Shown in pieces: positions 1-16,300 of a stretch of 62,676 nucleotides of DNA (within the stretch, counting starts at the first letter, position 1; every line of letters starts with the position of its first letter). The notes under the pieces are model-generated. The model was not told where the DNA came from. It ran no database searches and saw nothing but the letters and a program-made list of their open reading frames with translations. The stretch covers positions 1 to 62,676 of the forward strand of contig JAYTSD010000002.1 in NCBI GenBank assembly GCA_043745805.1, written 5' to 3'. Source of the stretch: Fibrobacteria bacterium (GTDB lineage Bacteria > Fibrobacterota > Fibrobacteria > UBA11236). The position numbers were made by a program, and so were the translations under genes.

Positions 1-32
1 CCATAACGCTTTTTTGTTACTTTTTCTTTCAT
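1..32 (-). CDS. IS3-family transposase OrfA, N-terminus only (MKEKVTKKRY...)
   Basis: ATG at 32 with GGAGG RBS, inside the IR; basic N-terminus with KRY typical of OrfA. Confidence 0.65.
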   Translation of the reverse strand, partial: MKEKVTKKRY

Positions 33-98
33 AGACACCTCCGGTCAATTGACCTAATTTACTTTTAGTAAAGTGTCCGTTAAACGGGGCGCAGATCA
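1..98 (-). mobile_element. IS3-family insertion sequence, left end (runs off window start)
   Basis: Minus strand from 98 reads TGATCTGCGCCCCGTTTAACGGACACTT, resembling IS3-type terminal IRs (TG...GGACAC), followed by RBS GGAGG and an ATG at 32. Confidence 0.8.
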
Positions 99-476
99 AT
101 GTTTACTTCCTTCTGGATCGACAAGGTGGATTTCTTTGCTAAGAATGTAAAAGGATGGAGGGTTTTTTGCCGCTCACCAATTTACACTTTGATGCTAATA
201 GGAGGTTATCGAGATGACTTGCTATTCAGTTTTTTTAATATTGTATTATTATTTTCGGGGCAATTAATTATATTCTCTCCTTTTTTTGCATTCAATAAAG
301 GTCGACTTCGTAGCTCGGCGATCCTAATAATTACATTTTGTTTCGTCATGTCTATTTTCGTCGGTTTTCTTTTTGTCAGTCAGCGGTATGAGATTAAATA
401 CGGATACTGGTTATGTACTTTTTCTTTGGCTCAAATTGTAATCGGTTTGATTGCATATAAGAAAAAAAGTTTTTAA
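99..476 (+). CDS. Small membrane protein, possibly 5'-truncated by the IS
   Basis: 125 aa ORF with 3-4 hydrophobic segments; ATG directly abuts the IS end with no RBS. Confidence 0.5.
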   Translation: MFTSFWIDKVDFFAKNVKGWRVFCRSPIYTLMLIGGYRDDLLFSFFNIVLLFSGQLIIFSPFFAFNKGRLRSSAILIITFCFVMSIFVGFLFVSQRYEIKYGYWLCTFSLAQIVIGLIAYKKKSF

Positions 477-625
477 AAAACGAGTTACATTTCGAAATTA
501 TCATAAACAGTTAACAAGAGTATTTTTAATAACTGAATTATCTAAATAAAGCATTTACTATCATTTTTTGAGATACAATTAAAATTTTCAAAGCAATCAG
601 TATTTAATTTTAAGAAAGAATAACC

Positions 626-1000
626 ATGAAAATATATCGTTTAGAAAAAATATTACTACTCTCCACCCTCGCCATAATCTTCATAAACGCTAAAACCGAC
701 TCCACCAATATCAATATTGCTCCGGTTCCAAAACCCACCCATACCGTAAGCAAAGAAGCAACATCTCAAGGTCTACGTGGAAACATCATTGCTATCGACA
801 CCACTTCTAACACCTTGACCGTAAAAGGTTTAACAGAAAACAAAACATTAAGCTTCACCTTAAACACCGACGCGAAAATTCGCGACAATAAAAAGTTTTT
901 AACTCTGCTAGAATTAAAATTAAATACCGAAGTATTTGTGAAATATGTAATTGAAGGCGACGTAAATTGGGTGTCTTTTGTGAGGGTATTGGGAAAATAG
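626..1000 (+). CDS. Secreted hypothetical protein (small beta-rich domain)
   Basis: 124 aa, N-terminal signal-like segment, Pro/Thr linker, alternating beta pattern. Confidence 0.7.
   Translation: MKIYRLEKILLLSTLAIIFINAKTDSTNINIAPVPKPTHTVSKEATSQGLRGNIIAIDTTSNTLTVKGLTENKTLSFTLNTDAKIRDNKKFLTLLELKLNTEVFVKYVIEGDVNWVSFVRVLGK
958..1000 (+). repeat. 43-bp direct repeat copy 1 (3' end of gene 626..1000)
   Basis: CGACGTAAATTGGGTGTCTTTTGTGAGGGTATTGGGAAAATAG; 39/43 identical to 1873..1915 by manual alignment. Confidence 0.9.
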
Positions 1001-1004
1001 GTGT

Positions 1005-1130
1005 CTCTACCTCGATACACTGCTTCGCGGCATTCGGTGTCCGTAGTAGAGGGTAACCCTTCCACGCCAATTGGTGTCCATGGTAGTTCCGGTCGTCGAG
1101 TGAATCCAAAGGATTAGTATCGAGACGCCG
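1005..1130. repeat. REP-like palindromic intergenic element
   Basis: Inverted pairs CTCGATAC (1011-1018)/GTATCGAG (1117-1124) and CTCTAC (1005-1010)/GTAGAG (1046-1051); GC-rich relative to flanks. Confidence 0.4.
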
Positions 1131-1184
1131 GTATAAAAAATACAATAGGTAAGCCGTTCAGCTTCAAAGTTCTTGTGAAATGGA

Positions 1185-1559
1185 TCAGAGAAAATGATCG
1201 ATGGTGATATGGAACAGTGCAGAAAGCTTCTTGGCTTTGTCCTTGCTCACCTTGCGATGCCCATTTTCCCAATCCGAGATATAGTTCTTAGACACGCCTA
1301 CTTTCTGCCCAAGTTCGCCTTGAGTCAATCCCAAGTTCTCTCGGTAAATCTGGATGCAGTTAGCGACAGTGGCCTTCTTGTTCAAGGCTTTGGCTTGGGC
1401 GGTCTCGAAATAGTCGACGCTCTCTTCCCACTCGCTTTGGATATGGAGCTTTCGGCCATACTCTTTCTTGAGTACTTCCATCATAAGAGGAGAAATGTCT
1501 CCTTTGATTCGCACATCAATACGGGGCGTTTTGACGACTGCCAACATAGTACACCTCAA
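1185..1559 (-). CDS. Xre/Cro HTH antitoxin (HigA-like); start may be 1547
   Basis: IYRENLGLTQGELGQKVGVSKNYISDWENGHR is an HTH_3 motif; directly downstream of a RelE-like toxin. Confidence 0.85.
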   Translation of the reverse strand: MRCTMLAVVKTPRIDVRIKGDISPLMMEVLKKEYGRKLHIQSEWEESVDYFETAQAKALNKKATVANCIQIYRENLGLTQGELGQKVGVSKNYISDWENGHRKVSKDKAKKLSALFHITIDHFL

Positions 1560-1791
1560 TGGTCAAAGTTTCTTTTTTGTATGTCCAGCACGCAACCCAG
1601 TGGTAGGACAAATGACAATGATACTTGTTCTTTCCCAAGTCACTGAAGTTCGGCCAAATCTTTGCGATAGGTCCGTTCTCCCGTAGATACTGAGCTAAGC
1701 GGTGGAACTTCAGCTGCTGTTCCTGGGGCATATTATCGAAAGCCTTCAAGGCTTTCTTGGTGATCCGGATCTGGTAGACTTTCTTTTCCAC
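1516..1791 (-). CDS. RelE/HigB-like toxin (GTG start at 1791 preferred over ORF-track 1827)
   Basis: YQIRITKKALKAFDNMP...YHCHLSYHWVACW...IEVYYVGSRQNAPY; toxin-first order; promoter lies within 1799-1827. Confidence 0.8.
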   Translation of the reverse strand: MEKKVYQIRITKKALKAFDNMPQEQQLKFHRLAQYLRENGPIAKIWPNFSDLGKNKYHCHLSYHWVACWTYKKETLTIEVYYVGSRQNAPY

Positions 1792-1798
1792 ATTTTTC

Positions 1799-1841
1799 AA
1801 TATACCCTTAAAAAGGGTACTCGTCAAGGATAAAGTACCCT
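1799..1841 (-). promoter_or_regulatory. Sigma70-type promoter and operator palindromes of the toxin-HTH operon
   Basis: TTGACG (1827-1822)-17 nt-TATATT (1804-1799); inverted repeats TACCCTT/AAGGGTA and GGGTACT/AGTACCC overlap it. Confidence 0.7.
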
Positions 1842-1872
1842 AGAGGCTTTGGCCTTTGGGGGTTGTTGATTC

Positions 1873-1915
1873 CGACGTAAATTGGGTGTTCTTTATGAGA
1901 GTATTGGGAAAATAG
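1873..1915 (+). repeat. 43-bp direct repeat copy 2
   Basis: CGACGTAAATTGGGTGTTCTTTATGAGAGTATTGGGAAAATAG; translates DVNWVFFMRVLGK* versus DVNWVSFVRVLGK* of gene 626..1000. Confidence 0.9.
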
Positions 1916-1939
1916 ACCATTTCCTGTGTTGAAGTAACC

Positions 1940-1985
1940 TTGACAACCCTTCTTCTGCTGTTTATACTATGTATATACCTAGGAG
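1940..1985 (+). promoter_or_regulatory. mazEF promoter, operator and RBS
   Basis: TTGACA (1940-1945)-17 nt-TATACT (1963-1968); overlapping palindromes TATAC-TAT-GTATA and GTATATAC; AGGAG at 1981. Confidence 0.75.
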
Positions 1986-1991
1986 AGCCGT

Positions 1992-2240
1992 ATGATAGCC
2001 AAAATCCAAAAATGGGGAAATAGTCAAGGTTTACGCATTCCTAAAGAAGCACTTTCCGTAGCGCATTTTGTAACTGGCGATGCCTTAGAAATAGAAGCCG
2101 TAGAAGGTTGTATTGTTCTCAAGCCCACAAAAAAGATCCAAAAAAAATATCGTATACAAGATTTATTCAAAAACGCTTCGAAAAAAAATCCGGCAAAAGA
2201 ATTGAATTGGGGCAAAGCTACGGGTAAAGAGGTATGGTGA
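1992..2240 (+). CDS. mazE: AbrB/MazE/SpoVT-family antitoxin
   Basis: KIQKWGNSQGLRIPK and C-terminal ELNWGKATGKEVW. Confidence 0.92.
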   Translation: MIAKIQKWGNSQGLRIPKEALSVAHFVTGDALEIEAVEGCIVLKPTKKIQKKYRIQDLFKNASKKNPAKELNWGKATGKEVW

Positions 2241-2584
2241 AAAAACCATTCATTCCTGCGCGCGGTGATTATATTGCCTTGCTTTTTGATCCGCAGGCTG
2301 GCCACGAACAAAAAGGTTGGCGACCGGCATTAGTATTGAGTAATAAAATATTTAATCAAAATACCGGCCTAGCTATTGTATGTCCAGTTACAAATACCAG
2401 TCGAGATTATCCCGTACATATTAAAATTCCCGCCGGTGAAGATGTAAAAGGTGTGATTATGGTGGACCAAATTAAATCCATTGATTATCTGGCCAGAAAA
2501 GCCAAGTTGCTCGGTAAAGCTCAACCAGAAATGTTGGAAGAAGCTTTAGCAATATTAGAGGCTTGTATCAGTGAAGCGAATTAG
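2234..2584 (+). CDS. mazF: PemK/MazF endoribonuclease toxin
   Basis: PARGD...FDPQAGHEQKGWRPALVLS...DQIKSIDY; overlaps mazE. Confidence 0.93.
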   Translation: MVKKPFIPARGDYIALLFDPQAGHEQKGWRPALVLSNKIFNQNTGLAIVCPVTNTSRDYPVHIKIPAGEDVKGVIMVDQIKSIDYLARKAKLLGKAQPEMLEEALAILEACISEAN

Positions 2585-2683
2585 TTTGATGTTTTTCAAC
2601 GGCGATCACGGCCATTGAGCTTGCCTAGATGAGCCTGCCGAACTGCTCAGCGTTCGCGTTGCTCACTTAATGGATTAGATATT

Positions 2684-2737
2684 GTTACTTTAAACTTCAC
2701 CTTAGCCATCGATGGAGAAATCCGCGATAATAAAAAG
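2684..2737 (+). pseudogene. Degenerate internal fragment paralogous to gene 626..1000
   Basis: Translates VTLNFTLAIDGEIRDNKK versus KTLSFTLNTDAKIRDNKK at 842..895. Confidence 0.75.
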
Positions 2738-2764
2738 CCCAACCTGATTTTAATCAAGCTGGGC
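2732..2764 (-). terminator. Possible intrinsic terminator for a minus-strand transcript
   Basis: Imperfect hairpin GCCCA..TGATT/AATCA..TGGGC preceded by an A-run (U-tract on minus strand). Confidence 0.4.
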
Positions 2765-2795
2765 AAGTAGAGTTTAATTTAAAGAATTAAAAACC

Positions 2796-2915
2796 TTAAA
2801 CAGCCATTTCCCAAAGTGAGTATCCATAGCCGGTACCGCGTTTAATACCGAGTATGCGAATATAACGACCTGTTCCGGTTAAGATAATAATGGGATCTCC
2901 AACAATTACTCCATC
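2796..2915 (-). pseudogene. C-terminal remnant of a discoidin (F5/8 type C, CBM32-like) domain
   Basis: LTGTGRYIRILGIKRGTGYGYSLWEMAV* matches the typical F5/8C end GRYVR...GYSLWEFEV; upstream sequence is not domain-like. Confidence 0.7.
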
Positions 2916-3292
2916 GGAAATGTCTCTGAAACGCATTTGATTATGGAATGCGCGAGTAATGTGAATTTTTTTTGCAATTAAATAAATAGGCATTGAGCGC
3001 TGGATCGGTTTATACGCTCAATTGCAAGCAGATAATAAAAAAGGTTTGATAGGGTTTATGATTTTTGGAAATAAAGCGACAAAGTGAATCAAAAATACTT
3101 CAAAATAGTTTATTAAATAACTTTAAATATTTCATAAGTCATTATAAATAAAAGTCTTATAAAAATATAAAAGAATCATAATTAAATTTATTTATTTGAT
3201 AATAATATTCAAAAGCGAGCTTATATTTAAATTATGATTTTTGCAAAACATATAAGTTATAAAGCCATTTTCTCTGTAAAAAGAGGTCAATA

Positions 3293-4156
3293 ATGGTAAA
3301 GAGCAAGGATTTAGTGGAGCAACCTCTTCCCGATATTTACACTTATAATGAGTACCGTATATTTTTAAAAGACTCCTTTGAAGCTTTAAAAGCAAATTCT
3401 AAAAAACTGTCGTATCGTACCTTTGCTAAAAATGCCGGTTTTTCATCCCCGAATTTTTTACAAATGGTGATTCAAGGAAAGAGAAGTTTTAATTTCACTC
3501 ATTCTATCGCGGTGGCTAAAGTCTTCAAATTGAATAAGCAGGAAAGTGAATTTTTTCAAAACTTAGTTGGTTATGATCAAGCTAAAAGCTTTGATGAAAA
3601 AAACACTTATTATCAAAAAATTTTACGGAATAAACGTTATACCACAATTAAGGCTTTAGATAAATCTCAATATGAGTTTTTTAGTCATTGGTATATTCCT
3701 GCGGTTCGTGAATTAATGACCCATGATGATTTTAAAAATAATAGTAGTTGGATTGCTGATAAGATTTATCCTCGTATCACTGTTTCACAAGTGGAGAGTG
3801 CTCGCACAATTCTACAAAAGTTGAATTTAATTGCATTTGATGAGATAATTCAAAAATGGAAATTTTCGAATTCTGTAATTCGCAGTGAATCGGAATCAAG
3901 TCATTTGGGCTTACGAAATTATCATAAATCAGGGATTCAACTGGCACAACAAGCATTGGAAAAATTGGATTCTAACCAACGAGACATTAGATCCGTAACA
4001 TTAGGATTGCCTAAAAGCGCCTTTAAAGATTTAAAATCACGCATTGAAAGTTTTTGGATTGAGCTGATGGATTTTGCTGGATCGCAAACGCAAACAGAAG
4101 AAGTTTATCAAATTAATCTTCAATTATTTCCACTAAGTAAGGGAAGAAAAGATTAA
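3293..4156 (+). CDS. TIGR02147 family protein (DUF4423, N-terminal HTH-like)
   Basis: IYTYNEYRIFLKD, SYRTFAKNAGFSSPNFL, WYIPAVREL, RDIRSVTL, VYQINLQLFPL. Confidence 0.9.
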   Translation: MVKSKDLVEQPLPDIYTYNEYRIFLKDSFEALKANSKKLSYRTFAKNAGFSSPNFLQMVIQGKRSFNFTHSIAVAKVFKLNKQESEFFQNLVGYDQAKSFDEKNTYYQKILRNKRYTTIKALDKSQYEFFSHWYIPAVRELMTHDDFKNNSSWIADKIYPRITVSQVESARTILQKLNLIAFDEIIQKWKFSNSVIRSESESSHLGLRNYHKSGIQLAQQALEKLDSNQRDIRSVTLGLPKSAFKDLKSRIESFWIELMDFAGSQTQTEEVYQINLQLFPLSKGRKD

Positions 4157-4157
4157 T

Positions 4158-4985
4158 ATGAAAATTTTTTTCCTTTTATGGGGATGTTTAGCCTCAATGT
4201 TATTGGTGAATTGCGGTGGGGAAAAGTTAGCTGGTGGCGCAGGAGCCGGAAATCCTCCTTCTGCAAAAGTGGCATTCGTTTTTAAAGCCAGCTCTTCTCC
4301 ACTTTTACCACTGGCTAAAAAATCATCTGTGGGTTTACGAAATCCTGACGGAACTTTTTCTTTAAAAGATTCTGTAGGGTCGCTATTAACTTTATCCACC
4401 ATCAAAATTTTCTCAAAGAGTATCGAATTAATCCTACCCGATAGTTTGTCTTGTGATGAAATCATAAATCTGGAATGCATAGATAGGGATGTAACCTTGA
4501 AGGGACCGTATTCCATGGATTTAATAACCGGACTCGCTACTCCAAATCTCAGAACCGTGGAGTTGCCTGCGGGATCGTATAAAGGTTTTAAACTTCAATT
4601 TTTGAATGAAGAAGACAATCTGCCTTCGGTATCACTTGATTCGGTTGTGACCAATGTTATTCTAAAAGGAAAAATAGCAACTACAGGAAAAGCTTTTGCC
4701 ATAAATTTATTAGTGTCCGAAGACTTAGAATTCATTCCACTGAACGGGACGCCGATTAAATCATCGCTGCTCAATAATATCACTTTATCCGTGTCTATTG
4801 ATAAATGGTTTGATGGTATTGATATGTTAAAATGTTTTGAGAGTAAGGATGTACAAATAGATAGTACCGGAACATTGATATTACAGGGTGATAAGGCTTG
4901 CGGCGGTTCAGGTCAAAGAATGCGATTGAATATCGAAAAGGCTGAGAGTGAAGTGGATCATCAAGACGTAGTGGAAACCAAATGA
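4158..4985 (+). CDS. Lipoprotein partner of the TIGR02147 gene
   Basis: Lipobox-like LVNC followed by AGGAGAGNPP; starts 1 nt after the upstream stop. Confidence 0.75.
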   Translation: MKIFFLLWGCLASMLLVNCGGEKLAGGAGAGNPPSAKVAFVFKASSSPLLPLAKKSSVGLRNPDGTFSLKDSVGSLLTLSTIKIFSKSIELILPDSLSCDEIINLECIDRDVTLKGPYSMDLITGLATPNLRTVELPAGSYKGFKLQFLNEEDNLPSVSLDSVVTNVILKGKIATTGKAFAINLLVSEDLEFIPLNGTPIKSSLLNNITLSVSIDKWFDGIDMLKCFESKDVQIDSTGTLILQGDKACGGSGQRMRLNIEKAESEVDHQDVVETK

Positions 4986-5071
4986 TTAGCCTAATAGCAA
5001 ATAAAGGGCCGTGGTTTGTAAGCTGAGATGCTACAAGCATAAATTTAAAACAAACAATTCAAGGAGACAAA

Positions 5072-6916
5072 ATGAAACTTACAAAAATAAGTGTTTTAGG
5101 ACTTTGCTTATGCTTTGGGATAACCCAATCCCAAACCTTAAACTTGACCGGCATGGTGACCGATGATAAGGCTGCACCATTGGCAGGGGTGCAAGTTAAG
5201 CTGAAAAAGGGAGGTTACTCCGCAGTTACTCTTAATAACGGGTCGTTTTCTTTGACTAACTTAGCGGGTATTTTGCCGCAGGGTTATGCTGGCATGCGAG
5301 AAAATATTCCTATGGCAAAAAATGGTAGTTTATTTTTCAAAATTAAAAATGCCCACCAAAATGTTTCCCTTAAGGTTTTGACTTTAGATGGAAAATCTAT
5401 TTATGCAAAGGCAAATTTATTTGAGCCTGGAGTTTATCACTTCACACCAAGTATAGGATCAAATAGTACTCCCATTATTGTAATGTGGGAGTCAGAAGGT
5501 CTAAGATATAGTTTTAAATTTTTAACCTCAAAAAAAGATGGACCATATTCCGTTTTAGAAAATAGCTCCGAAGCCCAAATTAATGCTTTTGCCAAATTAT
5601 CTTCTGCTTTAGCAGTTTTAGATACGTTAGTGGTGAGTAAGGCAACTTTTAAAGATCAATTATTATCCCTACAAAGTTATACCGGATCATTGGGAACCAT
5701 AGTATTAACTCGCTTAGCATTGGACACTACAAAATTGAATGTGCTAACTCCAGATAGTTTATATCGCTTGGCTTACGCTGAATTTAAAGCCACAAAGTAT
5801 GATAGTGCTATTGCTTTGTTAAATGTATACCTTACGCATTATCCATCGGGAGCCAATGCGGGTGATGCACAATATTTTCTCGCACGCAGTTTTTTTGAAC
5901 AAGGAATATCAGGTGCAAGTCGTAATGCTTTTCAAATGTACCTCAAAAATTATGCCTTAGGATCGCATGCCGATTGGTCGAATAGTTATATCGGAAGAAG
6001 CTATTTAGATGAAGCGAAATTTGACTCCGCTCGGATTTGGTTTTCCAATGTGCTCACTAAATATCCTGATAGCAGCTCTGCAGATAATGCACAATACTAT
6101 ACCGGTATCAGCTATTATGATCAAAAAAATTATGCGCCGGCAATAATCGCTTTCACTAAATTGGTGAGTACTTATCCCAAAAGTAATTTACTCGTCGATG
6201 CTCATTTATATCTGGGTAAAAGCAATTATCATCAGAATAATTACCCCAATGCTTTAACTGAATTTAATATTGTGTTAACCACATTTTCAACCTCTTCTTT
6301 AGCGGCTGATGCGCAGCTTGGAATAGGTGAGGTTTATTTAGCAATGGGTGCTACCGATTCTTTAAATTACCCCAAAGCCTTAATTGCTTATAATAAGGTT
6401 ATTAATAATTATCCTAATTCGACTGTTATCACAAGTGCTACCGAAGGTGTCGGCGAAAGCTATTATTATCTCAATGATTTTGTGAATGCACGGATTTGGT
6501 TGAAAAAAATAAGTACGAATTATCCTTTAAGTATTTATGTCCCCACTTCTTATTATTGGTTGGGGCGTTGTGACATGCAACAAGTGAATTATACTAGTGC
6601 ATTAGTTTGGTTCAATTTATTAACGCAAAATTATCCCAAGGCCGAAAAATTTAATATCACGCTCTATCAAATGGGAAAATGCAATTATTTACTTAAAACT
6701 TATCCTGCTTCTTTAACGAATTTTAAGGCCTTTCAAGCGGCTGATCCCAATAGTTCATTTGCGGACAATAGTTATTATTACACGGTAAGAATTTATACCT
6801 TGCAAAAAAACTGCGTGCAAGCGAAGGCTGAGTTGGCAACTATGGCAAGACTCTATCCGGCTAGCACCGTATTGGCCTCGACGCAAAAATATGTTCCTGC
6901 GAATGGTTGCCCATAA
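5072..6916 (+). CDS. Secreted TPR-repeat protein (N-terminal beta-sandwich, about 10 YfiO/CpoB-like TPR units)
   Basis: Signal peptide, AAGGAG RBS, GMVTDDKAAPLAGVQV, repeated YPxS..A..A.Y..G. Confidence 0.85.
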   Translation: MKLTKISVLGLCLCFGITQSQTLNLTGMVTDDKAAPLAGVQVKLKKGGYSAVTLNNGSFSLTNLAGILPQGYAGMRENIPMAKNGSLFFKIKNAHQNVSLKVLTLDGKSIYAKANLFEPGVYHFTPSIGSNSTPIIVMWESEGLRYSFKFLTSKKDGPYSVLENSSEAQINAFAKLSSALAVLDTLVVSKATFKDQLLSLQSYTGSLGTIVLTRLALDTTKLNVLTPDSLYRLAYAEFKATKYDSAIALLNVYLTHYPSGANAGDAQYFLARSFFEQGISGASRNAFQMYLKNYALGSHADWSNSYIGRSYLDEAKFDSARIWFSNVLTKYPDSSSADNAQYYTGISYYDQKNYAPAIIAFTKLVSTYPKSNLLVDAHLYLGKSNYHQNNYPNALTEFNIVLTTFSTSSLAADAQLGIGEVYLAMGATDSLNYPKALIAYNKVINNYPNSTVITSATEGVGESYYYLNDFVNARIWLKKISTNYPLSIYVPTSYYWLGRCDMQQVNYTSALVWFNLLTQNYPKAEKFNITLYQMGKCNYLLKTYPASLTNFKAFQAADPNSSFADNSYYYTVRIYTLQKNCVQAKAELATMARLYPASTVLASTQKYVPANGCP

Positions 6917-6963
6917 TGGTGAAAAAGCTAAACGTAACAAGCAATGGGAAGAGGAATTAAAGC

Positions 6964-8181
6964 ATGGAAATAAGTTCATTGTTTGATCCCGCCCATTCCG
7001 CCTTGGTGGTGATTTTGGGGGTAGTGTGCTTATTCCTGTCAATCGAAACCGTGCGTTTTCAGCGCCATCGCCGAGCCTTAGCGAAAATTCCCTTTCGTAT
7101 TCATATTAATGGATCGAGGGGTAAGTCTTCGGTTACGCGTTTAATTGGTGCCATTTTGCGCCAAACGGAAAAAATAACAGTTACCAAAACCACCGGCACT
7201 GCTCCGCGATTTATTATGCCCGACGGAAGAGAAATCCCCGTATTCCGTGCTGGCAAACCTAATATTATTGAACAATTAAAAATCGTAAATAAAGCGGCGA
7301 GTTTGGGGACGCAAATATTAGTAACTGAGTGCATGGCTGTTACCCCCGAATATATTTCCACGTTAGAAGAAAAAATAATTTGTAGTACCGTAGGCGTGAT
7401 TACCAATATTCGTGAAGATCATCTCGATGTAATGGGTCCTACTGTTTATGATGTTACAGTGAATATGGCGAGATCATTACCCAAAAATAGCATTGCTTTT
7501 ACCGCTGAAAAAAAATGGTTTAAAGTGTTGGAAAAAGAAGCACAACTAAAAGGTTCGCAATTAGTATTAGTATCCGAAGAAAATGTTACTGATGCGGAGA
7601 TGCAAGGCTTTGGTTATGTGGAGCATAAAGAAAATGTGGCTTTAGCTCTAGCAGTGACTGAATCATATGGGTTAAGCCGTCAGCAGGCATTTGCAGCCAT
7701 GTACAGTGCGCAACCGGATCCCGGTGTACTCAGAAAAAGCACATTGCATCGCGAAAATGGTACTTTGCATTTTTTTAATGCTTTGGCCGCGAATGATCCC
7801 GATTCCACAATACTGATTTGGAATATGGCCAAAGCCCGCCATCAAGGAAAAACGGTGGCGCTTTTGATATTACGATCCGATCGTATTCAAAGAACAGAAA
7901 GTTTTGCACAGGTTTTAGGTGTTACTCTAGAGGCGGACCTTTACATTGTGGCAGGAACCTCGGTAGCATTTGTCATAAATAGTCTGAAGAAAAAAGGTAT
8001 TGCAGAAAATAAAATTATCGCTTTGCATACGCCCAAACCTGAAGCGGTTGTGGAAGCGCTAATGCAGAGTATTGACCATGAAACTGTTGCTGTGGCGATG
8101 GGAAATATTATTGGTCTAGGAGAATTGGTTATTCAAGCCATTGAAGAAAATTTGAAAAACAAGTTGGAGATTAAAATATGA
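6964..8181 (+). CDS. pgsB: Poly-gamma-glutamate synthase PgsB/CapB
   Basis: RIHINGSRGKSSVTRLI, KTTGT, ECMAV, NIREDHLDVMGPT, ANDPDST; N-terminal TM helix. Confidence 0.95.
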   Translation: MEISSLFDPAHSALVVILGVVCLFLSIETVRFQRHRRALAKIPFRIHINGSRGKSSVTRLIGAILRQTEKITVTKTTGTAPRFIMPDGREIPVFRAGKPNIIEQLKIVNKAASLGTQILVTECMAVTPEYISTLEEKIICSTVGVITNIREDHLDVMGPTVYDVTVNMARSLPKNSIAFTAEKKWFKVLEKEAQLKGSQLVLVSEENVTDAEMQGFGYVEHKENVALALAVTESYGLSRQQAFAAMYSAQPDPGVLRKSTLHRENGTLHFFNALAANDPDSTILIWNMAKARHQGKTVALLILRSDRIQRTESFAQVLGVTLEADLYIVAGTSVAFVINSLKKKGIAENKIIALHTPKPEAVVEALMQSIDHETVAVAMGNIIGLGELVIQAIEENLKNKLEIKI

Positions 8182-8630
8182 TTTTAACGCAAGCTGTGGG
8201 ACTAGGGTTACTGCTCTCGCTTTATCTTTCGGAAGTATTAGGCTTTGTGGCCGGTGGTTTAGTGGTACCAGGGTATTTTGTGGTGATATCCTCTAAACCT
8301 TATATGTTACTCGCCACCATTCTGGCTAGTCTATTGGCTTTGGGAATGCTCAAAATTGTATCGCGTTGGGCCTTAATTTATGGACGTCGACGTTTATTTT
8401 TATCGGTGGTTTTAGGGTATGCTTTTGCGGAAATTAGTCGCTTACTATTTTATATATCTCCCAATGAATTATTAATGCAATTACAAGCATTCGGTTTTAT
8501 TTTACCTGGGCTATTAGCGTATTGGATGGATAAGCAAGGTATTTTACCTGCTTTAGGAATGTTGTCAGTAGTGGTAACCATGGTACGTTTGATGCTCATC
8601 ATTATTCATGGAGGAGCGAATATTATATGA
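8178..8630 (+). CDS. pgsC: Poly-gamma-glutamate biosynthesis membrane protein PgsC/CapC
   Basis: GGLVVPGY, IYGRRR, GFILPGLLAYWMDKQG; ATGA overlap with pgsB. Confidence 0.95.
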   Translation: MILTQAVGLGLLLSLYLSEVLGFVAGGLVVPGYFVVISSKPYMLLATILASLLALGMLKIVSRWALIYGRRRLFLSVVLGYAFAEISRLLFYISPNELLMQLQAFGFILPGLLAYWMDKQGILPALGMLSVVVTMVRLMLIIIHGGANII

Positions 8631-9748
8631 AAATGCATAGACATAAATTAACCTATGCCGAAATTGTTACCCTCGGTTTGGTGGGCGCAGGGGTAATTTT
8701 TCTTTCGGTATTGAGTTTACATGATAGACCCACCGAAGGGTATGACAAAAAAAAACAAGCTGCGATAAAAACCGCTGAGGCTTATGCGGCGATAAAATCT
8801 TATCGCATGCAAAGTGGATTGGGAATAGATACTTTGGACGACCCACAAGAAAGTGGAATGATAGGTGTTGATAAGTCTCCTATTACTACCGATGTAGGAG
8901 AATTGGAATCTAAGCTTACTTCGGTCAATCCGAATTGGTCAGCCGTGGTCATAGATAATTTAATACAAGCCAATGTAAAGCCTGGCGATGGGGTCGTGAT
9001 TGGTATGACTGGGTCATTTCCAGCCTTGAATACAGCAGTTATCATTGCCGTGGAAACTTTTGGTGCTATTCCAATTTGGATTATTTCCGAAGGCTCTTCC
9101 AATTGGGGCGCAAATATTCCGCAGTTAACTTGGCTTGACATGGAAAAAATTTTGCATGAAAAAGGACTTGTACAAGGTAAAGCTATTGCCTCGTCTTTAG
9201 GGGGAGCAAATAATGCAGGTGGAGGATTAACTCATGAAGGACGAGAAATTTTGCGTCATGCTATTGCAGCGAATCAAGTGCCTTTAATTGAAAAGCTTCC
9301 ATTGTCGGCTTCCATTGAAGAACAATTAGCGGCATATAAAAAAAATGCAGGGTCACATAAAATTTCGCTTTACATAAATGTGGGTGGTGGCTTGGGAAGT
9401 CTAGGCACGTCACGTGTAGGTGGTGTTTTAAAACCGGGATTAAATAATGTGCGTACTTATTTGGAAATTAAAGAAGAGCCTGTACAAGGCAATGTGGCTT
9501 ATTATTTAAGTCAAGGTGTTCCGGTTTTGAATCTTTTAAATATTGTGCCTTTGGCTCGATCAGCTGGATTACCCATTGCGCCTGGTGCAATTCCTGTTCC
9601 TGGTATAGGACCGGTTTTTTCCAAGCCGGCCTATAATGTTTGGATTAATGTTTTTTTGCTTTTAGCTTATTGCTTATTAGTTATGGCTGTAGCCTTTGGA
9701 TTCACTGAGTCGATTTTAAAAAACCCAAGAAAAGAAGAAATGATATGA
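8627..9748 (+). CDS. pgsW: Poly-gamma-glutamate system protein PgsW
   Basis: SPITTDVGELESKLTSVNPNW, TGSFPALN, SSNWGAN, SLGG, YINVGG; N- and C-terminal TM; ATGA overlap with pgsC. Confidence 0.85.
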   Translation: MKMHRHKLTYAEIVTLGLVGAGVIFLSVLSLHDRPTEGYDKKKQAAIKTAEAYAAIKSYRMQSGLGIDTLDDPQESGMIGVDKSPITTDVGELESKLTSVNPNWSAVVIDNLIQANVKPGDGVVIGMTGSFPALNTAVIIAVETFGAIPIWIISEGSSNWGANIPQLTWLDMEKILHEKGLVQGKAIASSLGGANNAGGGLTHEGREILRHAIAANQVPLIEKLPLSASIEEQLAAYKKNAGSHKISLYINVGGGLGSLGTSRVGGVLKPGLNNVRTYLEIKEEPVQGNVAYYLSQGVPVLNLLNIVPLARSAGLPIAPGAIPVPGIGPVFSKPAYNVWINVFLLLAYCLLVMAVAFGFTESILKNPRKEEMI

Positions 9749-11541
9749 AATCTCGATTACTTTTCCTTTTTATACTGTTAACATTATCGTTACCTAGCTA
9801 TGCTTCATGGGATAATATTACCGATTCCTTAGCCGGCTCGCATCTTACTGTGAAAAGTCAAAATGCCAGTAAGGTGTATTTGGAATTAATTCCCAGCAAA
9901 CCACTTAATTTAGAATTTCCCAAAAAATCAAGTTATCGCTGGAAAATTACTTCTATGGCGAAAGGAAATTTTTTTATAAAAAATGGAACGACGGTTATTG
10001 ACAGCAAAATCATCGCAAAAGGAGATAATGATTTTAAAATATTTTTGGAACCAGGAAAGTATCAAATTCATTCTACCATTGGTGCGCGCGCGGAATGTTT
10101 TATTTGGAAGAAAAAACGTAAGCTAGCGTCCTTAGTTCCTGAAGGAGGCGGGTTTGCAACGTATATGCATACGGGCGATAATAATTTTGCCTATTATCGT
10201 GTTACTACTGATACTGTTCCTGTACTTAGTGTTAAAGGTCCAACTATAGCTTATGTTTTTTTTCGTGCGAATATGGTGAAGGGAATTGAAAAAACCAAAG
10301 TCGATTTAACAGTAAAAGAAAATGATTCTATTGTGGCACATAAAATTTCTGAAATCACGAAGTCTTTGAAGGCCATGCCATCGGATGATAGTACCTTACT
10401 TATTTCTGAAGCTTTAGTAGTTCATTTTAAAGTGCCCGAAGGAATGCATAAATATTCCATTCATGTGCTTAATTGCAAAGGATACCTAAAATTTTATAAA
10501 GTCGACAAAAAATCAAAGAAAAATTCTGAAGGTCAATTAGAACAACAGGGCCAACTTGATGACAATGATGAACTTGATGATGAATTGGCCGCGAATGATT
10601 TGTTAGAGGATGAAGGACTAAAATTGGGTTTAGAATCCACTAAAGCTTTCCGGTTCACTTTTCATGGGGGGTTGCAATACGATAATAATGCCTATCGGTA
10701 TAGCAAAGGATTTTTAGATACTTTTGATTTGAATCTGAAATCGCGACGCTATCCTAATGTTCAAAAAACCTGGGATATAATATTTCCCCTTGGTGCCCAA
10801 GTATCGCTGCAAAGAGGTAATCTCTCCGTTGGCGCGAGTGCAAATGGTAATCTTTATTCAGCAAATGCAAACTTATCGAATATGGGCATGAATTTATTTA
10901 TGACATGGTCAGGACCATTGCGGTTACGGGCACAATATCATTGGACGCCTTATGATCCGGTTCGTCCCACATTCGACAATGCTTCTAACCTGTATAAATT
11001 CATGTGGTATTCTGAACATAAAGGAACTTTAGCTACGCAAATTACTTCTTGGAAAATAAAACCGAGCCTCGATTTTTCGTATGGCTATTACAATTACAAT
11101 TCCATTTTTAATAATTATGATGCCCCGTTTTGGGAAAGCGGAATTAGTGCTACGATGAATCAAATTATTGCCATCCAAATTCGCGGTAATATAGGTAAAG
11201 TTACTACTAAACATAACACTACTCAAGACGCCACCAATTTATTTCTGGGAGCAGAAGGAGAGGTTCATTATGATTTCAATACTTGGTTAATAGGAGTCAG
11301 GGGATCCATATTAAATCGTGGGTACGATACCAAGGATATTTTAGACACGCATCATCAAAGAAAAGATTTATCAGGTGATGAATTCTTTTATGTGAAAAAG
11401 AATTTGCATCGTTGGGCTATTGCTTCCAAGATTGGGTATTTATGGCGCGCTACGCAATCACCTCGGGCAAATATCGATGCGGATAAAGATTATGGTGCAT
11501 TTGTGATAGGGATTGATTTTTCATGGGGCATGAAGGTTTAG
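9745..11541 (+). CDS. Secreted protein: N-terminal beta domains, acidic linker, probable C-terminal outer-membrane beta-barrel
   Basis: Signal peptide; DDNDELDDE linker; GLQYDNNAY start and amphipathic aromatic-rich strands ending GIDFSWGMKV; ATGA overlap with pgsW. Confidence 0.65.
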   Translation: MKSRLLFLFILLTLSLPSYASWDNITDSLAGSHLTVKSQNASKVYLELIPSKPLNLEFPKKSSYRWKITSMAKGNFFIKNGTTVIDSKIIAKGDNDFKIFLEPGKYQIHSTIGARAECFIWKKKRKLASLVPEGGGFATYMHTGDNNFAYYRVTTDTVPVLSVKGPTIAYVFFRANMVKGIEKTKVDLTVKENDSIVAHKISEITKSLKAMPSDDSTLLISEALVVHFKVPEGMHKYSIHVLNCKGYLKFYKVDKKSKKNSEGQLEQQGQLDDNDELDDELAANDLLEDEGLKLGLESTKAFRFTFHGGLQYDNNAYRYSKGFLDTFDLNLKSRRYPNVQKTWDIIFPLGAQVSLQRGNLSVGASANGNLYSANANLSNMGMNLFMTWSGPLRLRAQYHWTPYDPVRPTFDNASNLYKFMWYSEHKGTLATQITSWKIKPSLDFSYGYYNYNSIFNNYDAPFWESGISATMNQIIAIQIRGNIGKVTTKHNTTQDATNLFLGAEGEVHYDFNTWLIGVRGSILNRGYDTKDILDTHHQRKDLSGDEFFYVKKNLHRWAIASKIGYLWRATQSPRANIDADKDYGAFVIGIDFSWGMKV

Positions 11542-11657
11542 AAAAAATTAAACCTAAAAATTTATTCTCACCAATTATTTCCATCCTAGTATTTGTCATT
11601 TGAATTTATCAAATATGTTGCAATTCATTTCAAACTAAAATCAGAAAGAAGGCGAAA

Positions 11658-12455
11658 TTGTCTCATCGTATCCCAGTTATTCCAACAACCCTTTTACTCA
11701 TAATTCTCCTCAACACCTTTTTATTCGCTGGCCTTCCTTTAGAAACTGAAACTGCAAGAACATTAAAGGCGGGTAAATTTGAATTTTCCTCGAGTTTTGA
11801 ATATCAAATGTCTTCGGAAGGTAAGGAACAAGCTTTGCCTATGGCATTTGAATATGGAGTTACCGACAAATTGGAGATAATGGTAGAGCCTGTATTTTAT
11901 ACAGCCATTTTACCGGATTCTGGTTCAAATTCTATTGGCATAGGTGACCTTGAAGTTACTTTAAATTATAAATTTTTTTCCGAAAAAGATTTGCTCCCTG
12001 CTTTTGCCATTGCAGGCGAAGTAAAAATTCCAACGGCCAAAAATCGTCAAATTGGCACGGGAGAAGCTGATTATGCAGGTTATTTCATTATGAGCAAAAA
12101 AATACATGATTTAGATATCCATTTAAATATGGGTTATACCGTGGTAGGTCAACCGACTGGGGTAACCTTGGATAATTTATATTCCTTTGCTTTGGCCGCA
12201 GAATATTATTTTAGCGAGGGCTTACAAATTGTAGCCGAAACCTATGGTAACACCTCTTCCTTTTCTGAAGGTGGAAGTGAAGCAGTAATTACTGGCGCGG
12301 AGAATAAAGTTATTCCCGAAGCTTCGGGTGGCGAGCTTGTGGGCGCATTGGGATTGCGATACTTTTGGCATCCTAAAATCGGAGTGGCCTTAGGATTAAG
12401 TTATGACAACAATAATGCAATTATGTTTGCACCGGGTTTATTAATTCATTTTTAA
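11658..12455 (+). CDS. Outer-membrane transporter/porin (MetA-pathway/SphA-like)
   Basis: Signal peptide, PLETETA, GIGDLEV, VKIPTA...GTGEAD, terminal Phe. Confidence 0.75.
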   Translation: MSHRIPVIPTTLLLIILLNTFLFAGLPLETETARTLKAGKFEFSSSFEYQMSSEGKEQALPMAFEYGVTDKLEIMVEPVFYTAILPDSGSNSIGIGDLEVTLNYKFFSEKDLLPAFAIAGEVKIPTAKNRQIGTGEADYAGYFIMSKKIHDLDIHLNMGYTVVGQPTGVTLDNLYSFALAAEYYFSEGLQIVAETYGNTSSFSEGGSEAVITGAENKVIPEASGGELVGALGLRYFWHPKIGVALGLSYDNNNAIMFAPGLLIHF

Positions 12456-12544: not shown

Positions 12545-13306
12545 ATGGAAAATCAGAATAAAGCTATAACTCACATTAAAGTACCAGAAGTATTACTGTT
12601 ATTTTGGATTCTCAAAATAGTGGCCACCACTTTGGGAGAAACCGCCGGCGATGCTGTTTCCATGTCCATGAATTTGGGTTACTTAATGGGGACGGTGCTA
12701 TTTGCTGCAATATTTGTTTTGGCCGTCATAGCTCAAATGCGATCAAAAAAGTTTCACCCGCTGTTGTATTGGACTACCATTATTGCCACCACGACAGTAG
12801 GTACAACGCTTGCCGACTTTGTAGATCGTTCTTTAGGCATTGGTTATGCAGGCGGTACATCCCTATTAATCATTTTATTAATGGGATCTTTATTTGTTTG
12901 GCATCGATCCTTAGGCTCCATTTCTATTAATACTATTAACTCTCCGAAAGCAGAAATGTTTTATTGGGTAACTATTATGTTTTCGCAAACCTTAGGTACT
13001 GCTTTGGGAGATTGGACATCGGATACAGCAGGATTTGGTTATACCGGTGGTGCTATTTTGTTTGGATCTTTGTTGGCGTTAATTGCTGCATTGTATTATT
13101 GGAGTAAAATATCTCACACCGTGCTTTTTTGGGCGGGTTTTATTCTTACTCGGCCACTGGGTGCTGTGGTGGGTGACTTTTTGGATAAGCCTATTAGCAA
13201 GGGTGGATTGGCTTTAAGCCGCTATACCGCTTCTGCGGTTTTATTTGGATTTATGTTGGCTTGCATTTTGATTTTTAAACAAAGGTCTGCAAAAAGTAGC
13301 CATTGA
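12545..13306 (+). CDS. COG4705/DUF347 repeat membrane protein
   Basis: KVPEV..FWILKIVATTLGETAGD, YWVTIMFSQTLGTALGD, FILTRPLGA. Confidence 0.9.
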   Translation: MENQNKAITHIKVPEVLLLFWILKIVATTLGETAGDAVSMSMNLGYLMGTVLFAAIFVLAVIAQMRSKKFHPLLYWTTIIATTTVGTTLADFVDRSLGIGYAGGTSLLIILLMGSLFVWHRSLGSISINTINSPKAEMFYWVTIMFSQTLGTALGDWTSDTAGFGYTGGAILFGSLLALIAALYYWSKISHTVLFWAGFILTRPLGAVVGDFLDKPISKGGLALSRYTASAVLFGFMLACILIFKQRSAKSSH

Positions 13307-13358: not shown

Positions 13359-16300
13359 ATGAATTTTTTGCGTCTATTCGCGTCTTGGTTAATCATTGTC
13401 ACCTCCTTTTATTTTTTGGCATGCAAAAAAAAAATCAAGGGTCCTAAAATAGACGCCGCTCTAGCAAGTTTGGTTTCGGGATTTAGTTCTGGTCCAATTT
13501 CTGCGAATGGCCCAATACGTATCGTCATGGTTAATGCGGTAGCTGATTCCAATATGATTAACAAAGAATTGCACAAAGAGACATTTGATTTTTCCCCTTC
13601 CATTAAAGGAATAGCCTTATGGGTGGATGAGCGTACTTTAGAATTTCGCCCCGCAGAAAAATTAAAACGAGGAAAAAATTATCATGTCGTAGTGCATTTG
13701 GATAAAGTTGTGCCCGTGCCGGAAAAATTGAAAGCCTTGGAATTTGATATTGTGGGTATGGAGCAATATTTTGAGAATAAGATCGGTAGCTTGGAGCTTG
13801 TGGATGAAAATCACTTAGAGCTACAACGACTAAGTGGTATCGCGCTTTTAGCAGATGCCGAGGAGGGGCAAATCGTTGAGGAAATTCTTTCCGTAAATCA
13901 AGAAGGACAGAATTTAAAGATAACTTGGGAACATAAAACGGATGGACGCGAACATGTTTTTCATATCGACAATTTAAAAAGAGGGGAAGCGGAGTCCAAA
14001 GTCGTTCTGCATTGGAATGGAAAATCTATTCAGGCAGATAAAGAATTAGCGGATACAATACGCATTCCTTCTATTAATGAGTTTAGTGTTTTAAGCGTGG
14101 AAGCTGGGCAAGGTTCAGAGCGTTACATATTGGTGCATCTTTCTGATCCCCCTAAAAAAAGCATGGATTTTCGCGGGTTAGTTGAAGTGTCGGATCAGGG
14201 TGGATTACGTTTTCAGGCTATAGGCAATGAGATTCGTGTATATAGTAGCAATGAATGGTCTGGATCTAAAAATGTACAAATTAATGCGGGACTATATAAT
14301 GTATTTGGTAAGCCCTTACAAAACCCTGGTACTTTTCAAATTAATTTCGAAGAAATTAAACCGGGTATTCGCTTTATTGGTAAAGGAGTCATTCTTCCTG
14401 GGAGTAGCGATTTAACCTTACCATTTGAGGCGGTTAATTTACGTGCCGTGCATGTCACCGTAACTCGCATTTTTTCAGGTAATATTCCACAATTTTTACA
14501 AGTCAATGACTTGGAAGGCGAAAATGAATTACAAAGAGTAGGCCGTGTAGTTTGGAATAAAACGCTGCATTTAAATCCCACGACTAGCATGAGTCAGCGA
14601 TGGGCACGTTATGCTCTTGATTTAACTGAAATCGTGAAAAAAGAGGATCAAGCAGGCTCTATGTACCGTATTTCCTTGTCCTTTGATCGATCGAATTCGC
14701 TTTACCCTTGTGCCGATTCTGCGGCGGCCAATACCCAAGAAAATTCGGTACAAAACTGGGATGAAGATCAAGAAGCACAAGCCAGTGGTTGGGATGGTGT
14801 GGAGGAATATTATGATGATAATGAAGGGTATCGTTGGGAAGATAGAGAAAATCCTTGTACGCCTTCTTATTATCGTTATGGACAAAAAAAGGCGGCGCGT
14901 AATTTTCTCGCTTCTAATATTGGCTTAATGGCAAAAACCGGTATGCCGGGACATCTATTTATTGTCGCGACGGATCTCCTAACGGCAAAGCCTTTGGGGA
15001 ATACCGAAATAGAAGTTTTGAATTATCAACATCAGGTGATGGCGCATACACAAACCGATGGGGATGGTTTTGCCGAAGTGGAATTAACAGGTAAGCCCTT
15101 TTTAATCAAGGCGATAAAGGAAAAACAACAAGGCTATCTCAAAGTGGATGAAAGAACGGCCATACAAATGGGGCAGTTTGAAGTAGGTGGATTGGCGGTG
15201 CAAGAAGGATTGAAAGGTTTTCTTTTTGGAGAGCGCGGCGTATGGCGTCCCGGAGACTCTTTATATTTGACTTTTATTTTGGAAGACAAACAAGGACGTT
15301 TACCTAGCGGTCACCCTTTAACCTTTGAGTTACGCGATCCGCAAGGGCGTGTGGTGCGCACTTTAACGCGTGAAGCCTCCGGATCTTTTTATTCTTTCGC
15401 CACGAACACTGACATTGATGCGCCTACTGGAAATTATTTGGCGCGTATTCATGCCGGCCCAGCTATTTTTGAAGAAAAGGTGAATATTGAAAATGTAATG
15501 CCTAATCGATTAAAAATTAGGGCTGACTTTTCTCCCAAACCATTAAGAAAAAATCTTCCTATTAAAGGTAACCTTGATGTTTCCTGGTTAAGTGGCGCGG
15601 TAGCCAAGTATTTAGAAGCAGAAGTGGAAATGACTTTGGAAAATGCAGCACCAAATTTCCCTATCTTTACCGATTATACCTTTGAGGATCCTTTAAGGAA
15701 TTTTCAAACGGAATCGCAAAATTTATTTCAAGGACGTATCGATGGAAGCGGTAAAGCATCATTCAGCCATACCGTAAAAGTTTCGGGGAAAGCACCAGGA
15801 TTTTTACAAGCGAATTTTCGCACGCGCGTGCTTGAAGCGGGAGGCGGTTTTAGTATCGATAGATACTCTCAGCCTTTTTATCCTTATAACGCTTATGTGG
15901 GCATGAAATTGCCCAGTGGCGATAAAGCGCGCAATATGTTACTTACCGATACCACACACAATATTCGCTTTTGCATGTTGGATACCAAGGGTCAAAAAAT
16001 TTCTCATCGGCGTTTACAAATTCACCTCTTTAAAATGGAATGGAAATGGTGGTGGCAAAAAGATCAAGAGTCTGCTAATTATATTAGTAGTGAATCGCGC
16101 AATGCTTTGCAAACCGACACGGTGCGCATTGCAGGTGGCGAAGGTACCTGGTCATTGAAAGTCAAATACCCTGAATGGGGACGTTATTTGATTCGCGCTT
16201 GCGATATGGACGACGGCGCAGAAGCGCATTGTACAGGTAAAGTTTTTTACATGGATTGGCCGGGATGGGCTGGACGCGCGCAACGTGAGGGTCCTGGTGG

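Follow-up and report, generated by a model that had tools for sequence, protein, structure and literature searches.

A poly-gamma-glutamate operon of Fibrobacteria with a fused sandwich-barrel gene: a candidate route across the outer membrane

We analysed a stretch of 62,676 nucleotides (nt) from a Fibrobacteria bacterium (assembly GCA_043745805.1, contig JAYTSD010000002.1, positions 1 to 62,676 of the forward strand, called the window hereafter), which carries an operon for poly-gamma-glutamate (PGA). In this operon, the synthase genes pgsB and pgsC are followed by a gene of the TIGR04332 family and then by the gene of P0005, a 598-amino-acid (aa) protein predicted to combine two beta-sandwich domains with an outer-membrane barrel. 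We favour reading the window as the Fibrobacteria variant of a conserved two-membrane module for the synthesis and export of PGA. The functional tie of the barrel to the PGA synthase is strongly supported by the linkage of the genes in other bacteria and by gene fusions, and the barrel is the best candidate for the exit pore of the polymer. PGA occurs in capsules and biofilms and is used industrially, and nearly all work on it concerns the single-membrane Bacillus, for which polymer synthesis by PgsB and PgsC is established. Throughout the text, 'pgsW' is a working label for the TIGR04332 protein ('poly-gamma-glutamate system protein'), a name that our literature search did not find in any relevant paper among the matches listed.

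Organization of the pgs operon

From the gene of a tetratricopeptide repeat (TPR) protein through that of P0005, five consecutive open reading frames (ORFs) lie on the plus strand (Table 1). The stop of the TPR gene is separated from the start of pgsB by 47 nt, and the genes that follow are chained by ATGA stop/start overlaps at 8178 (pgsB/pgsC), 8627 (pgsC/pgsW) and 9745 (pgsW/P0005). This arrangement had been described in an initial annotation made from the letters of the DNA, and it is confirmed by the sequence and by the NCBIfam matches. The TIGR04332 gene is adjacent to the pgsB-pgsC pair, and the three genes thereby match, in identity and order, the pgsB-pgsC-TIGR04332 cassette that NCBIfam defines for diderms. 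Promoter-like sites (39, against 36.0 expected after shuffling) and terminator-like sites (8, against 8.7) were not in excess. As to the source habitat, the stretch was contained in four DNA runs, all of one sediment-metagenome study, two of which may be its source. No RNA run was listed as containing it, which is evidence neither for nor against the operon being expressed.

The initial annotation had also pointed out that neither pgsA/capA nor capD lies in the window, and this holds even genome-wide. PGA_cap (PgsA/CapA, PF09587) gave no match among the ORFs of the window or in its own genome, which is 99.19% complete, and the control search with PF09587 was positive in 7 of 14 named genomes. 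Likewise, a CapD-type gamma-glutamyltranspeptidase (PF01019) was not found in this genome. Since PgsA/CapA was not found in a genome of such completeness, another third subunit is needed. The predicted structure of the pgsW product has a mean predicted local distance difference test score (pLDDT) of 92.9; helices at residues 10-28 and 338-356 flank an alpha/beta domain of about 300 aa, so that the modelled topology is a transmembrane helix, the alpha/beta domain and a second transmembrane helix. We also looked for a fold relative of the TIGR04332 protein. The best structural match had a Z of 7.4, below the noise level of about 8, and none was assigned.

Predicted structure of P0005

No Pfam or NCBIfam family matched P0005 at E<=0.01, and its structure was predicted by AlphaFold2 from a 31-row alignment. 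The resulting model (mean pLDDT 89.6, predicted template modelling score (pTM) 0.56) divides the protein into a signal peptide, two beta-sandwich domains, a disordered acidic linker and a barrel (Table 1). The cleavage site of the signal peptide is our own reading of the sequence and not the output of a prediction tool. The sandwich domains are read as periplasmic. A lysine-rich stretch precedes the acidic linker (10516-10641), and the acidic character of the linker is kept in the aligned close homologs. For the sandwich domains, Foldseek returned only scattered weak matches (CBM51 and others), and they were not assigned to a fold family.

The barrel half of P0005 is predicted, with high confidence in the fold, to be a 14-stranded outer-membrane barrel, in agreement with the proposal of the initial annotation that the C-terminal half of the protein folds as a barrel. 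On its lipid-facing side, as estimated from strand alternation, aliphatic and aromatic residues make up 71 of 99 positions. In an exhaustive structure search (VIA-align), CymA came first (Z 22.8, root-mean-square deviation (rmsd) 3.9, 271 aligned residues) and OmpG second (Z 20.9, rmsd 3.3, 236 aligned), followed by chains of Bacteroidota BAM complexes (Z 17.1-18.1) and by FadL (16.9). Foldseek, used on the same barrel, gave OmpG with a TM-score (template modelling score) of 0.66. As for the porins that export exopolymers, 4y25_A, which we take to be PgaA, reached a Z of 13.4, BcsC 12.8 and PelBC 12.7 (PDB 4y25, 9b8h and 9h80). The initial annotation had drawn a parallel with the AlgE/PgaA/BcsC/PelB systems; with its 14 strands, its sandwich extension and Z values of 12.7-13.4 for these porins against 20.9-22.8 for the best two matches, the barrel of P0005 does not fit that class.

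Linkage of the sandwich and barrel genes to pgsW

The P0005 family is rare. A word-indexed search found seven proteins including the query, a further search gave 42 representatives (E<=0.001) out of 1.84 billion, and a search of genome contigs with a narrower alignment found two relatives only, both in metagenome-assembled genomes of Fibrobacteria. TIGR04332 is widespread, with 531 proteins at E<=0.001 from sources named Ignavibacteriaceae, Neomarinimicrobiota, Eisenbacteria, Proteobacteria, Methylomirabilia and Bremerella. In 41 relatives, the P0005 family and TIGR04332 were each found in the same three genomes. In 296 Fibrobacterota genomes, a tally that counts in G021, a non-holder, TIGR04332 was found in four (G000, G002, G023 and G098), and the P0005 family in the same four, always directly downstream of TIGR04332. 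An extra match of 22 bits to the P0005 profile in G075 was taken as chance.

We then looked at metagenome loci. The sample consisted of the best 80 of 534 pgsW relatives, chosen by PgsW alignment and therefore biased towards the PgsW of the window; sandwich and barrel genes were called with the P0005-family profile and with profiles iterated on its matches. Fifty loci were informative, with at least 2300 bp downstream of pgsW. In 31 of them, a sandwich and a barrel gene lie directly downstream of pgsW on the same strand; in two the sandwich gene adjoins pgsW and the barrel gene is elsewhere in the locus, and three have the sandwich gene only. When PgsW proteins were clustered at 90% identity, these three arrangements accounted for 30, 2 and 3 of 46 clusters, with 11 having neither gene. 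Clustering at 50% identity gave 11 clusters, of which five lack the module; its presence thus follows particular PgsW clades. The G+C (guanine plus cytosine) content of loci with both genes ranges from 33 to 70%.

The usual form elsewhere is a two-copy sandwich protein of about 300 aa followed by a barrel protein of about 380 aa, both encoded directly after pgsW. Both of these separate ORFs begin with hydrophobic signal-like segments, and 21 of 34 barrel ORFs in split homologs end in F, W or Y, 17 of these in F. When 15 sandwich and barrel representatives were tested, none matched a Pfam or NCBIfam family. Compared with these split forms, P0005 appears to be a natural fusion of a sandwich and a barrel that are encoded by separate genes in most other bacteria.

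Gene fusions, charge and predicted contact

Two kinds of fusion were observed. PgsW and the sandwich module are encoded in one ORF in four loci (Table 1). At the junction, the second membrane helix of PgsW is followed by a short arginine-rich loop and a further hydrophobic segment, and with this extra segment the chain would return to the periplasm. The sandwich and the barrel are encoded in one ORF, as in the window, in eight loci (L008, L017, L018, L019, L027, L053, L067 and L093). L053 and L093 have both kinds of fusion, so that the path from PgsW to the barrel would there consist of two polypeptides. In even-stranded barrels both ends are usually periplasmic; taken together with the fusions, this would make the sandwich module a periplasmic part located between PgsW and the barrel.

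The net charge of the sandwich module is positive in 40 of 41 cases, with a median of +14, which would suit a polyanion. The contact between PgsW (residues 31-337) and the sandwich module (P0005 residues 21-257) was modelled in three runs together with controls, following a suggestion of the initial annotation that the 598-aa protein be modelled with PgsW. The median score was 0.50 (0.50, 0.00 and 0.57 in the three runs) and the best control scored 0.00; contact agreement was at least 0% and partner pLDDT at least 76. In the calibration of the method, 116 of 157 solved complexes passed the mark, as did 2 of 215 mismatches; both of these mismatches, but only 18 of the solved complexes that passed, scored 0.60 or less. 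The predicted contact is weakly supported.

The regulator-lipoprotein-TPR cassette

The secreted TPR protein P0001 has its TPR region at about residues 226-600 (Pfam TPR_6 at 104.6 bits, TPR_2, TPR_16 and YfiO) and a CarboxypepD_reg match at residues 25-65 of its N-terminus. It was considered and rejected as an equivalog of CpoB or BamD, since this protein of 614 aa with a CarboxypepD_reg-like N-terminus lacks the full-length match: the CpoB (YbgF) model NF008068 gave 78.6 bits against a cut-off of 383, TIGR02795, a model of 119 positions, needed five repeated stretches to exceed its cut-off (166 against 90.1), and TIGR03302 needed three stretches (91.1 against 81.4). The lipoprotein P0171 encoded just upstream had no Pfam or NCBIfam match.

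The regulator, lipoprotein and TPR genes (3293-6916) are syntenic in L009 (G023) and L017, and the TPR gene alone is also syntenic in L008 (G002). Orthologs of P0001 beside pgs genes, at 640-671 bits, were found only in these three loci, and phylum-wide, full-length orthologs (640-660 bits) only in G002 and G023. Among the metagenome loci, 38 had at least 1.8 kb before pgsB, and in 25 of these the nearest ORF was on the same strand. We scanned 24 upstream ORFs, namely 23 of the 25 (L085 and L086 were dropped as duplicates of L082) and one in L095; two of the 24 encoded TPR proteins, one in L017, a close relative, and the other in L095. The initial annotation had expected both the TPR and the barrel genes to co-occur with pgsBCW elsewhere. 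This held for the barrel, in 4 of 4 genomes and in the metagenome loci counted above, and not for the TPR gene outside close relatives. Judged from gene order, the regulator-lipoprotein-TPR triad is thus probably a clade-specific accessory cassette at pgs loci.

Proteins with the architecture of P0001 were also found in G090 and G086, two genomes without pgsW, at 39-43% identity over the C-terminal half. P0171 is weakly similar to the protein in the same position in G090 (BLASTP E 7e-4, 21% identity). In both genomes the gene order is a DUF4423 regulator, a small lipoprotein, a P0001-like TPR protein, a 7TM_transglut/Transglut_core protein, an ATPgrasp_ST ligase, a large TPR protein and an ORF of 400-421 aa. 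The protein encoded by this terminal ORF has ...VGW or ...VKW as its last residues and resembles a barrel; P0005 profiles gave no match to it at E<=10. A cassette of this kind thus also precedes RloBC-like operons in pgs-free genomes and is not specific to PGA. According to an excerpt of the report on the Pseudomonas aeruginosa rlo operon, its protease cleaves glutamate-rich sequences (PMC12239564). Two roles are conceivable for the cassette: it may support glutamate-rich polymers in the periplasm as a scaffold, or it may serve in regulation or sensing.

Companion and neighbouring genes

In 11 of the 24 scanned upstream ORFs, a Peptidase_C25 protein is encoded directly upstream of pgsB, most of them with a type IX secretion sorting domain (Table 1). 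A role of this peptidase in polymer processing or attachment at the surface is conceivable. After the barrel gene, LVIVD propeller repeats were found in 19 of 24 scanned ORFs (about 330-345 aa); 32 candidate ORFs were available, and six on the opposite strand as well as those of L031 and L071 were dropped. In L053 the LVIVD protein is fused to an FGE-sulfatase domain. Neither companion is present at the window locus; in the same genome, C25 genes lie on other contigs and the sole LVIVD match, of 25 bits, is on contig C44.

At 11658-12455 in the window, starting 116 nt after the operon, an ORF of 265 aa matches Phenol_MetA_deg at 33.5 bits and is a second probable outer-membrane barrel. A homolog lies upstream of the G023 locus on the opposite strand (L009:2009-2530), hence near the operon with a position that is not fixed. 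Further downstream, the window contains a gene for a DUF347 membrane protein (12545-13306) and a gene for a bacterial alpha-2-macroglobulin of 1886 aa (13359-19019) with matches to MG, bait-region and thioester domains. Neither of these two had a homolog in the related loci searched.

Table 1. Positions of the genes, protein regions and comparison loci (window coordinates unless a locus is named)
Feature	Position	Strand	Basis or remark
TIGR02147/DUF4423 helix-turn-helix (HTH) protein, likely local regulator	3293..4156	+	TIGR02147 243.1 bits (cut-off 50); DUF4423 119 bits
P0171, 275-aa probable lipoprotein	4158..4985	+	Hydrophobic N-terminus, Cys 10 and Cys 19
P0001, secreted 614-aa TPR protein	5072..6916	+	Pfam matches, hydrophobic N-terminus
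pgsB, poly-gamma-glutamate synthase amide ligase	6964..8181	+	TIGR04012 386.2 bits (cut-off 222.7); Mur_ligase_M
pgsC, membrane subunit	8178..8630	+	TIGR04011 101.5 bits (cut-off 96.45); Caps_synth_CapC (PF14102) 102 bits
pgsW, TIGR04332 protein	8627..9748	+	282.9 bits (cut-off 100)
P0005, 598-aa sandwich-barrel protein	9745..11541	+	Predicted structure
P0005 signal peptide, residues 1-20 (...PSYA)	9745..9804	+	Sequence reading; helix 2-19 in model
P0005 two beta-sandwich domains, residues 21-257, net +14	9805..10515	+	All-beta 20-253, pLDDT mostly >90
P0005 disordered acidic linker, residues 258-299	10516..10641	+	14 D/E against 3 K/R; pLDDT <50 at 258-297
P0005 predicted 14-stranded outer-membrane barrel, residues 300-598 and stop	10642..11541	+	14 long strands within 300-597
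PgsW-sandwich fusion ORFs	L025:1218-2800, L053:9926-11941, L062:3223-5238, L093:847-2859		About 670 aa; L025 cut by contig end
RloBC-like operon, L111 (G090:C6)	1717-11598	-	
RloBC-like operon, L112 (G086:C9)	24-9484	+	
C25 peptidase (gingipain-like, about 1100-1280 aa)	L031, L032, L033, L034, L038, L052, L053, L067, L075, L088, L089		
LVIVD ORFs (examples)	L023:3754-4764, L087:12872-13861, L053:13486-15915		

Discussion

That the barrel of P0005 is the outer-membrane exit of a trans-envelope route for PGA is the most likely reading of the operon, and our confidence in it is somewhat better than even. By family assignment, PgsB and PgsC would polymerise glutamate at the inner membrane. PgsW would replace PgsA and present the chain in the periplasm via its alpha/beta domain of about 300 aa, a periplasmic topology that we infer from the model and from the positive-inside rule. 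The basic sandwich module would take the anionic chain from PgsW and, docked on the barrel, hold it at the barrel mouth, and the polymer would cross the outer membrane through the 14-stranded barrel. One may only speculate whether the acidic linker serves as a flexible tether or as a plug resembling the substrate. The initial annotation had the TPR and barrel genes carry the polymer together.

Several observations weigh against this exit route. The initial annotation had predicted a basic lumen, and this is not supported: a crude strand-alternation estimate, made without coordinates, puts 14 K/R, 12 D/E and 3 H on the polar face of the barrel, and the net charge of the barrel is positive in only 18 of 34 homologs, the sandwich module being the basic part of the protein. 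P0005 has a C-terminal valine, where outer-membrane proteins typically have an aromatic residue. With its pTM of 0.56, the full-length model leaves the relative placement of the predicted domains unfixed. The closest solved barrels, CymA, OmpG and FadL, are uptake channels, with the exopolymer porins at lower Z. One of the three runs of the complex prediction scored 0.00, and the verdict of the tool was 'weak'. Finally, in 14 of the 50 informative pgsBCW loci neither a sandwich nor a barrel gene lies nearby; these module-free loci fall in separate PgsW clades, the module is thus not universal, and the 31 of 50 is not an estimate for pgsW loci at large.

Some of these observations suit other roles for the barrel. 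It might belong to the PGA system without being its conduit, by anchoring or retaining the polymer or by tethering the synthase, PGA then staying periplasmic or exiting otherwise. The linkage and the fusions indicate joint function and not passage, the basic sandwich module could simply bind polymer, the surface-sorted C25 peptidase and the LVIVD propeller of distant loci would suit processing or attachment at the surface, and the lumen is not clearly basic. Nevertheless, we regard such a role as unlikely, because the 14-stranded, CymA/OmpG-like geometry is that of a channel and larger than typical anchor barrels of 8-10 strands, the module has no other conserved candidate for the outer membrane, and the barrel gene immediately follows the sandwich gene in 31 loci. 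If the barrel is a channel, it could also work inwards, as an uptake channel for glutamate or recycled PGA fragments that is co-regulated with the synthase. Its best structural matches are uptake channels, and distant loci often have a neighbouring peptidase gene. An importer, however, needs neither of the fusions, PgsW-sandwich and sandwich-barrel, that tie the barrel to the synthase side, and no gene for an inner-membrane importer is conserved in the module, which makes uptake improbable in our view. That the 598-aa ORF is an unrelated porin placed there by chance is hardly credible, given the ATGA overlap with pgsW, the adjacency in four of four genomes of the phylum and in 31 of the 50 metagenome loci, and the two kinds of fusion.

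Another proposal concerns the TPR protein and the lipoprotein, which could form a dedicated periplasmic scaffold that guides PGA, as AlgK, PelB, PgaA and BcsC do for polysaccharides. The TPR gene is 47 nt from pgsB with no terminator-like site between them, its orthologs at 640-671 bits occur in the same position and only in pgs-bearing relatives, and the similar cassette before the RloBC-like operons of G090 and G086 would link two systems with glutamate-rich products. Against this, outside close relatives TPR proteins account for 2 of the 24 upstream ORFs and C25 peptidases for 11, and two loci with the fused barrel, L018 and L019, lack a P0001-like gene. Moreover, the three linked genomes are from one clade and amount to a single observation, and the first gene of the cassette resembles a transcription-factor gene, and the whole could serve in regulation. 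A dedicated scaffold for PGA therefore seems rather doubtful to us. More tentatively than the exit route itself, and with a better chance than the dedicated scaffold, PgsW, sandwich and barrel might form one continuous machine that threads a polyamide, and the cassette might mark a handling step common to the glutamate-rich polymers of two unrelated ligase systems.

The exit route for PGA that we favour has a known core, the PgsBC synthase with a third subunit defined by NCBIfam, and an export part that would resemble synthase-dependent polysaccharide secretion in its logic. Like the PgsBCA(E)/CapBCA(DE) systems of Bacillus, the operon of the window has equivalog-level PgsB and PgsC and overlapping genes. 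In contrast with them, its genome has no detected PgsA/CapA or CapD-type protein and TIGR04332 takes the third place; its host has an outer membrane, and the operon carries a barrel gene, for which monoderm systems have no need. The diderm cassette curated by NCBIfam ends at three genes, whereas sandwich and barrel genes follow in 31 of the 50 loci. The likeness to AlgK/AlgE, PgaA, BcsC and PelB/PelC is that a single operon encodes a synthase of the inner membrane, a module of the periplasm and a barrel of the outer membrane, and PgaA and BcsC have, as P0005, a periplasmic domain fused N-terminally to the barrel. The barrels of AlgE, PgaA, BcsC and PelB have 16 or 18 strands and that of P0005 has 14; the polymer here would be a polyamide, the fused periplasmic part is a beta-sandwich rather than TPR, and the TPR protein of the window is encoded by a separate adjacent gene that is linked to pgs in one clade only.

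With the monomeric channels CymA and OmpG, P0005 shares the 14-stranded barrel fold, these two being the best matches over the whole barrel. Sequence does not place it in their families, as identity in the structural alignments is 5-7% and no family matches; CymA and OmpG also import sugars and have neither N-terminal sandwich domains nor linkage to a synthase. The RloBC-like operons of G090 and G086, named after rloABC of P. aeruginosa (PMC12239564, excerpt), have the same triad upstream and a terminal probable barrel, but their ligase chemistry and membrane proteins are different and the two genomes have no pgs genes.

In an excerpt of the review PMC3815933, the Gram-negative PGA producer on record is Fusobacterium nucleatum (Candela et al. 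2009, cited therein), and the term 'outer membrane' is absent from this excerpt. The excerpt of another review, PMC13721041, has no mention of PGA terms. No description of PGA crossing an outer membrane was found in our literature search. The set of PgsW, sandwich and barrel provides named, testable candidates for this crossing, and it also indicates that PGA is probably made by many uncultured diderm lineages. The contribution of the window to this set is a complete sandwich-barrel fusion, next to which the PgsW-sandwich fusions form a second link, and a variant with a TPR gene, through which the PGA module is connected to RloBC-like systems. If PgsW, sandwich and barrel do form one continuous machine, this would be the first outer-membrane secretion route for PGA, with two of its three protein families having no curated model.

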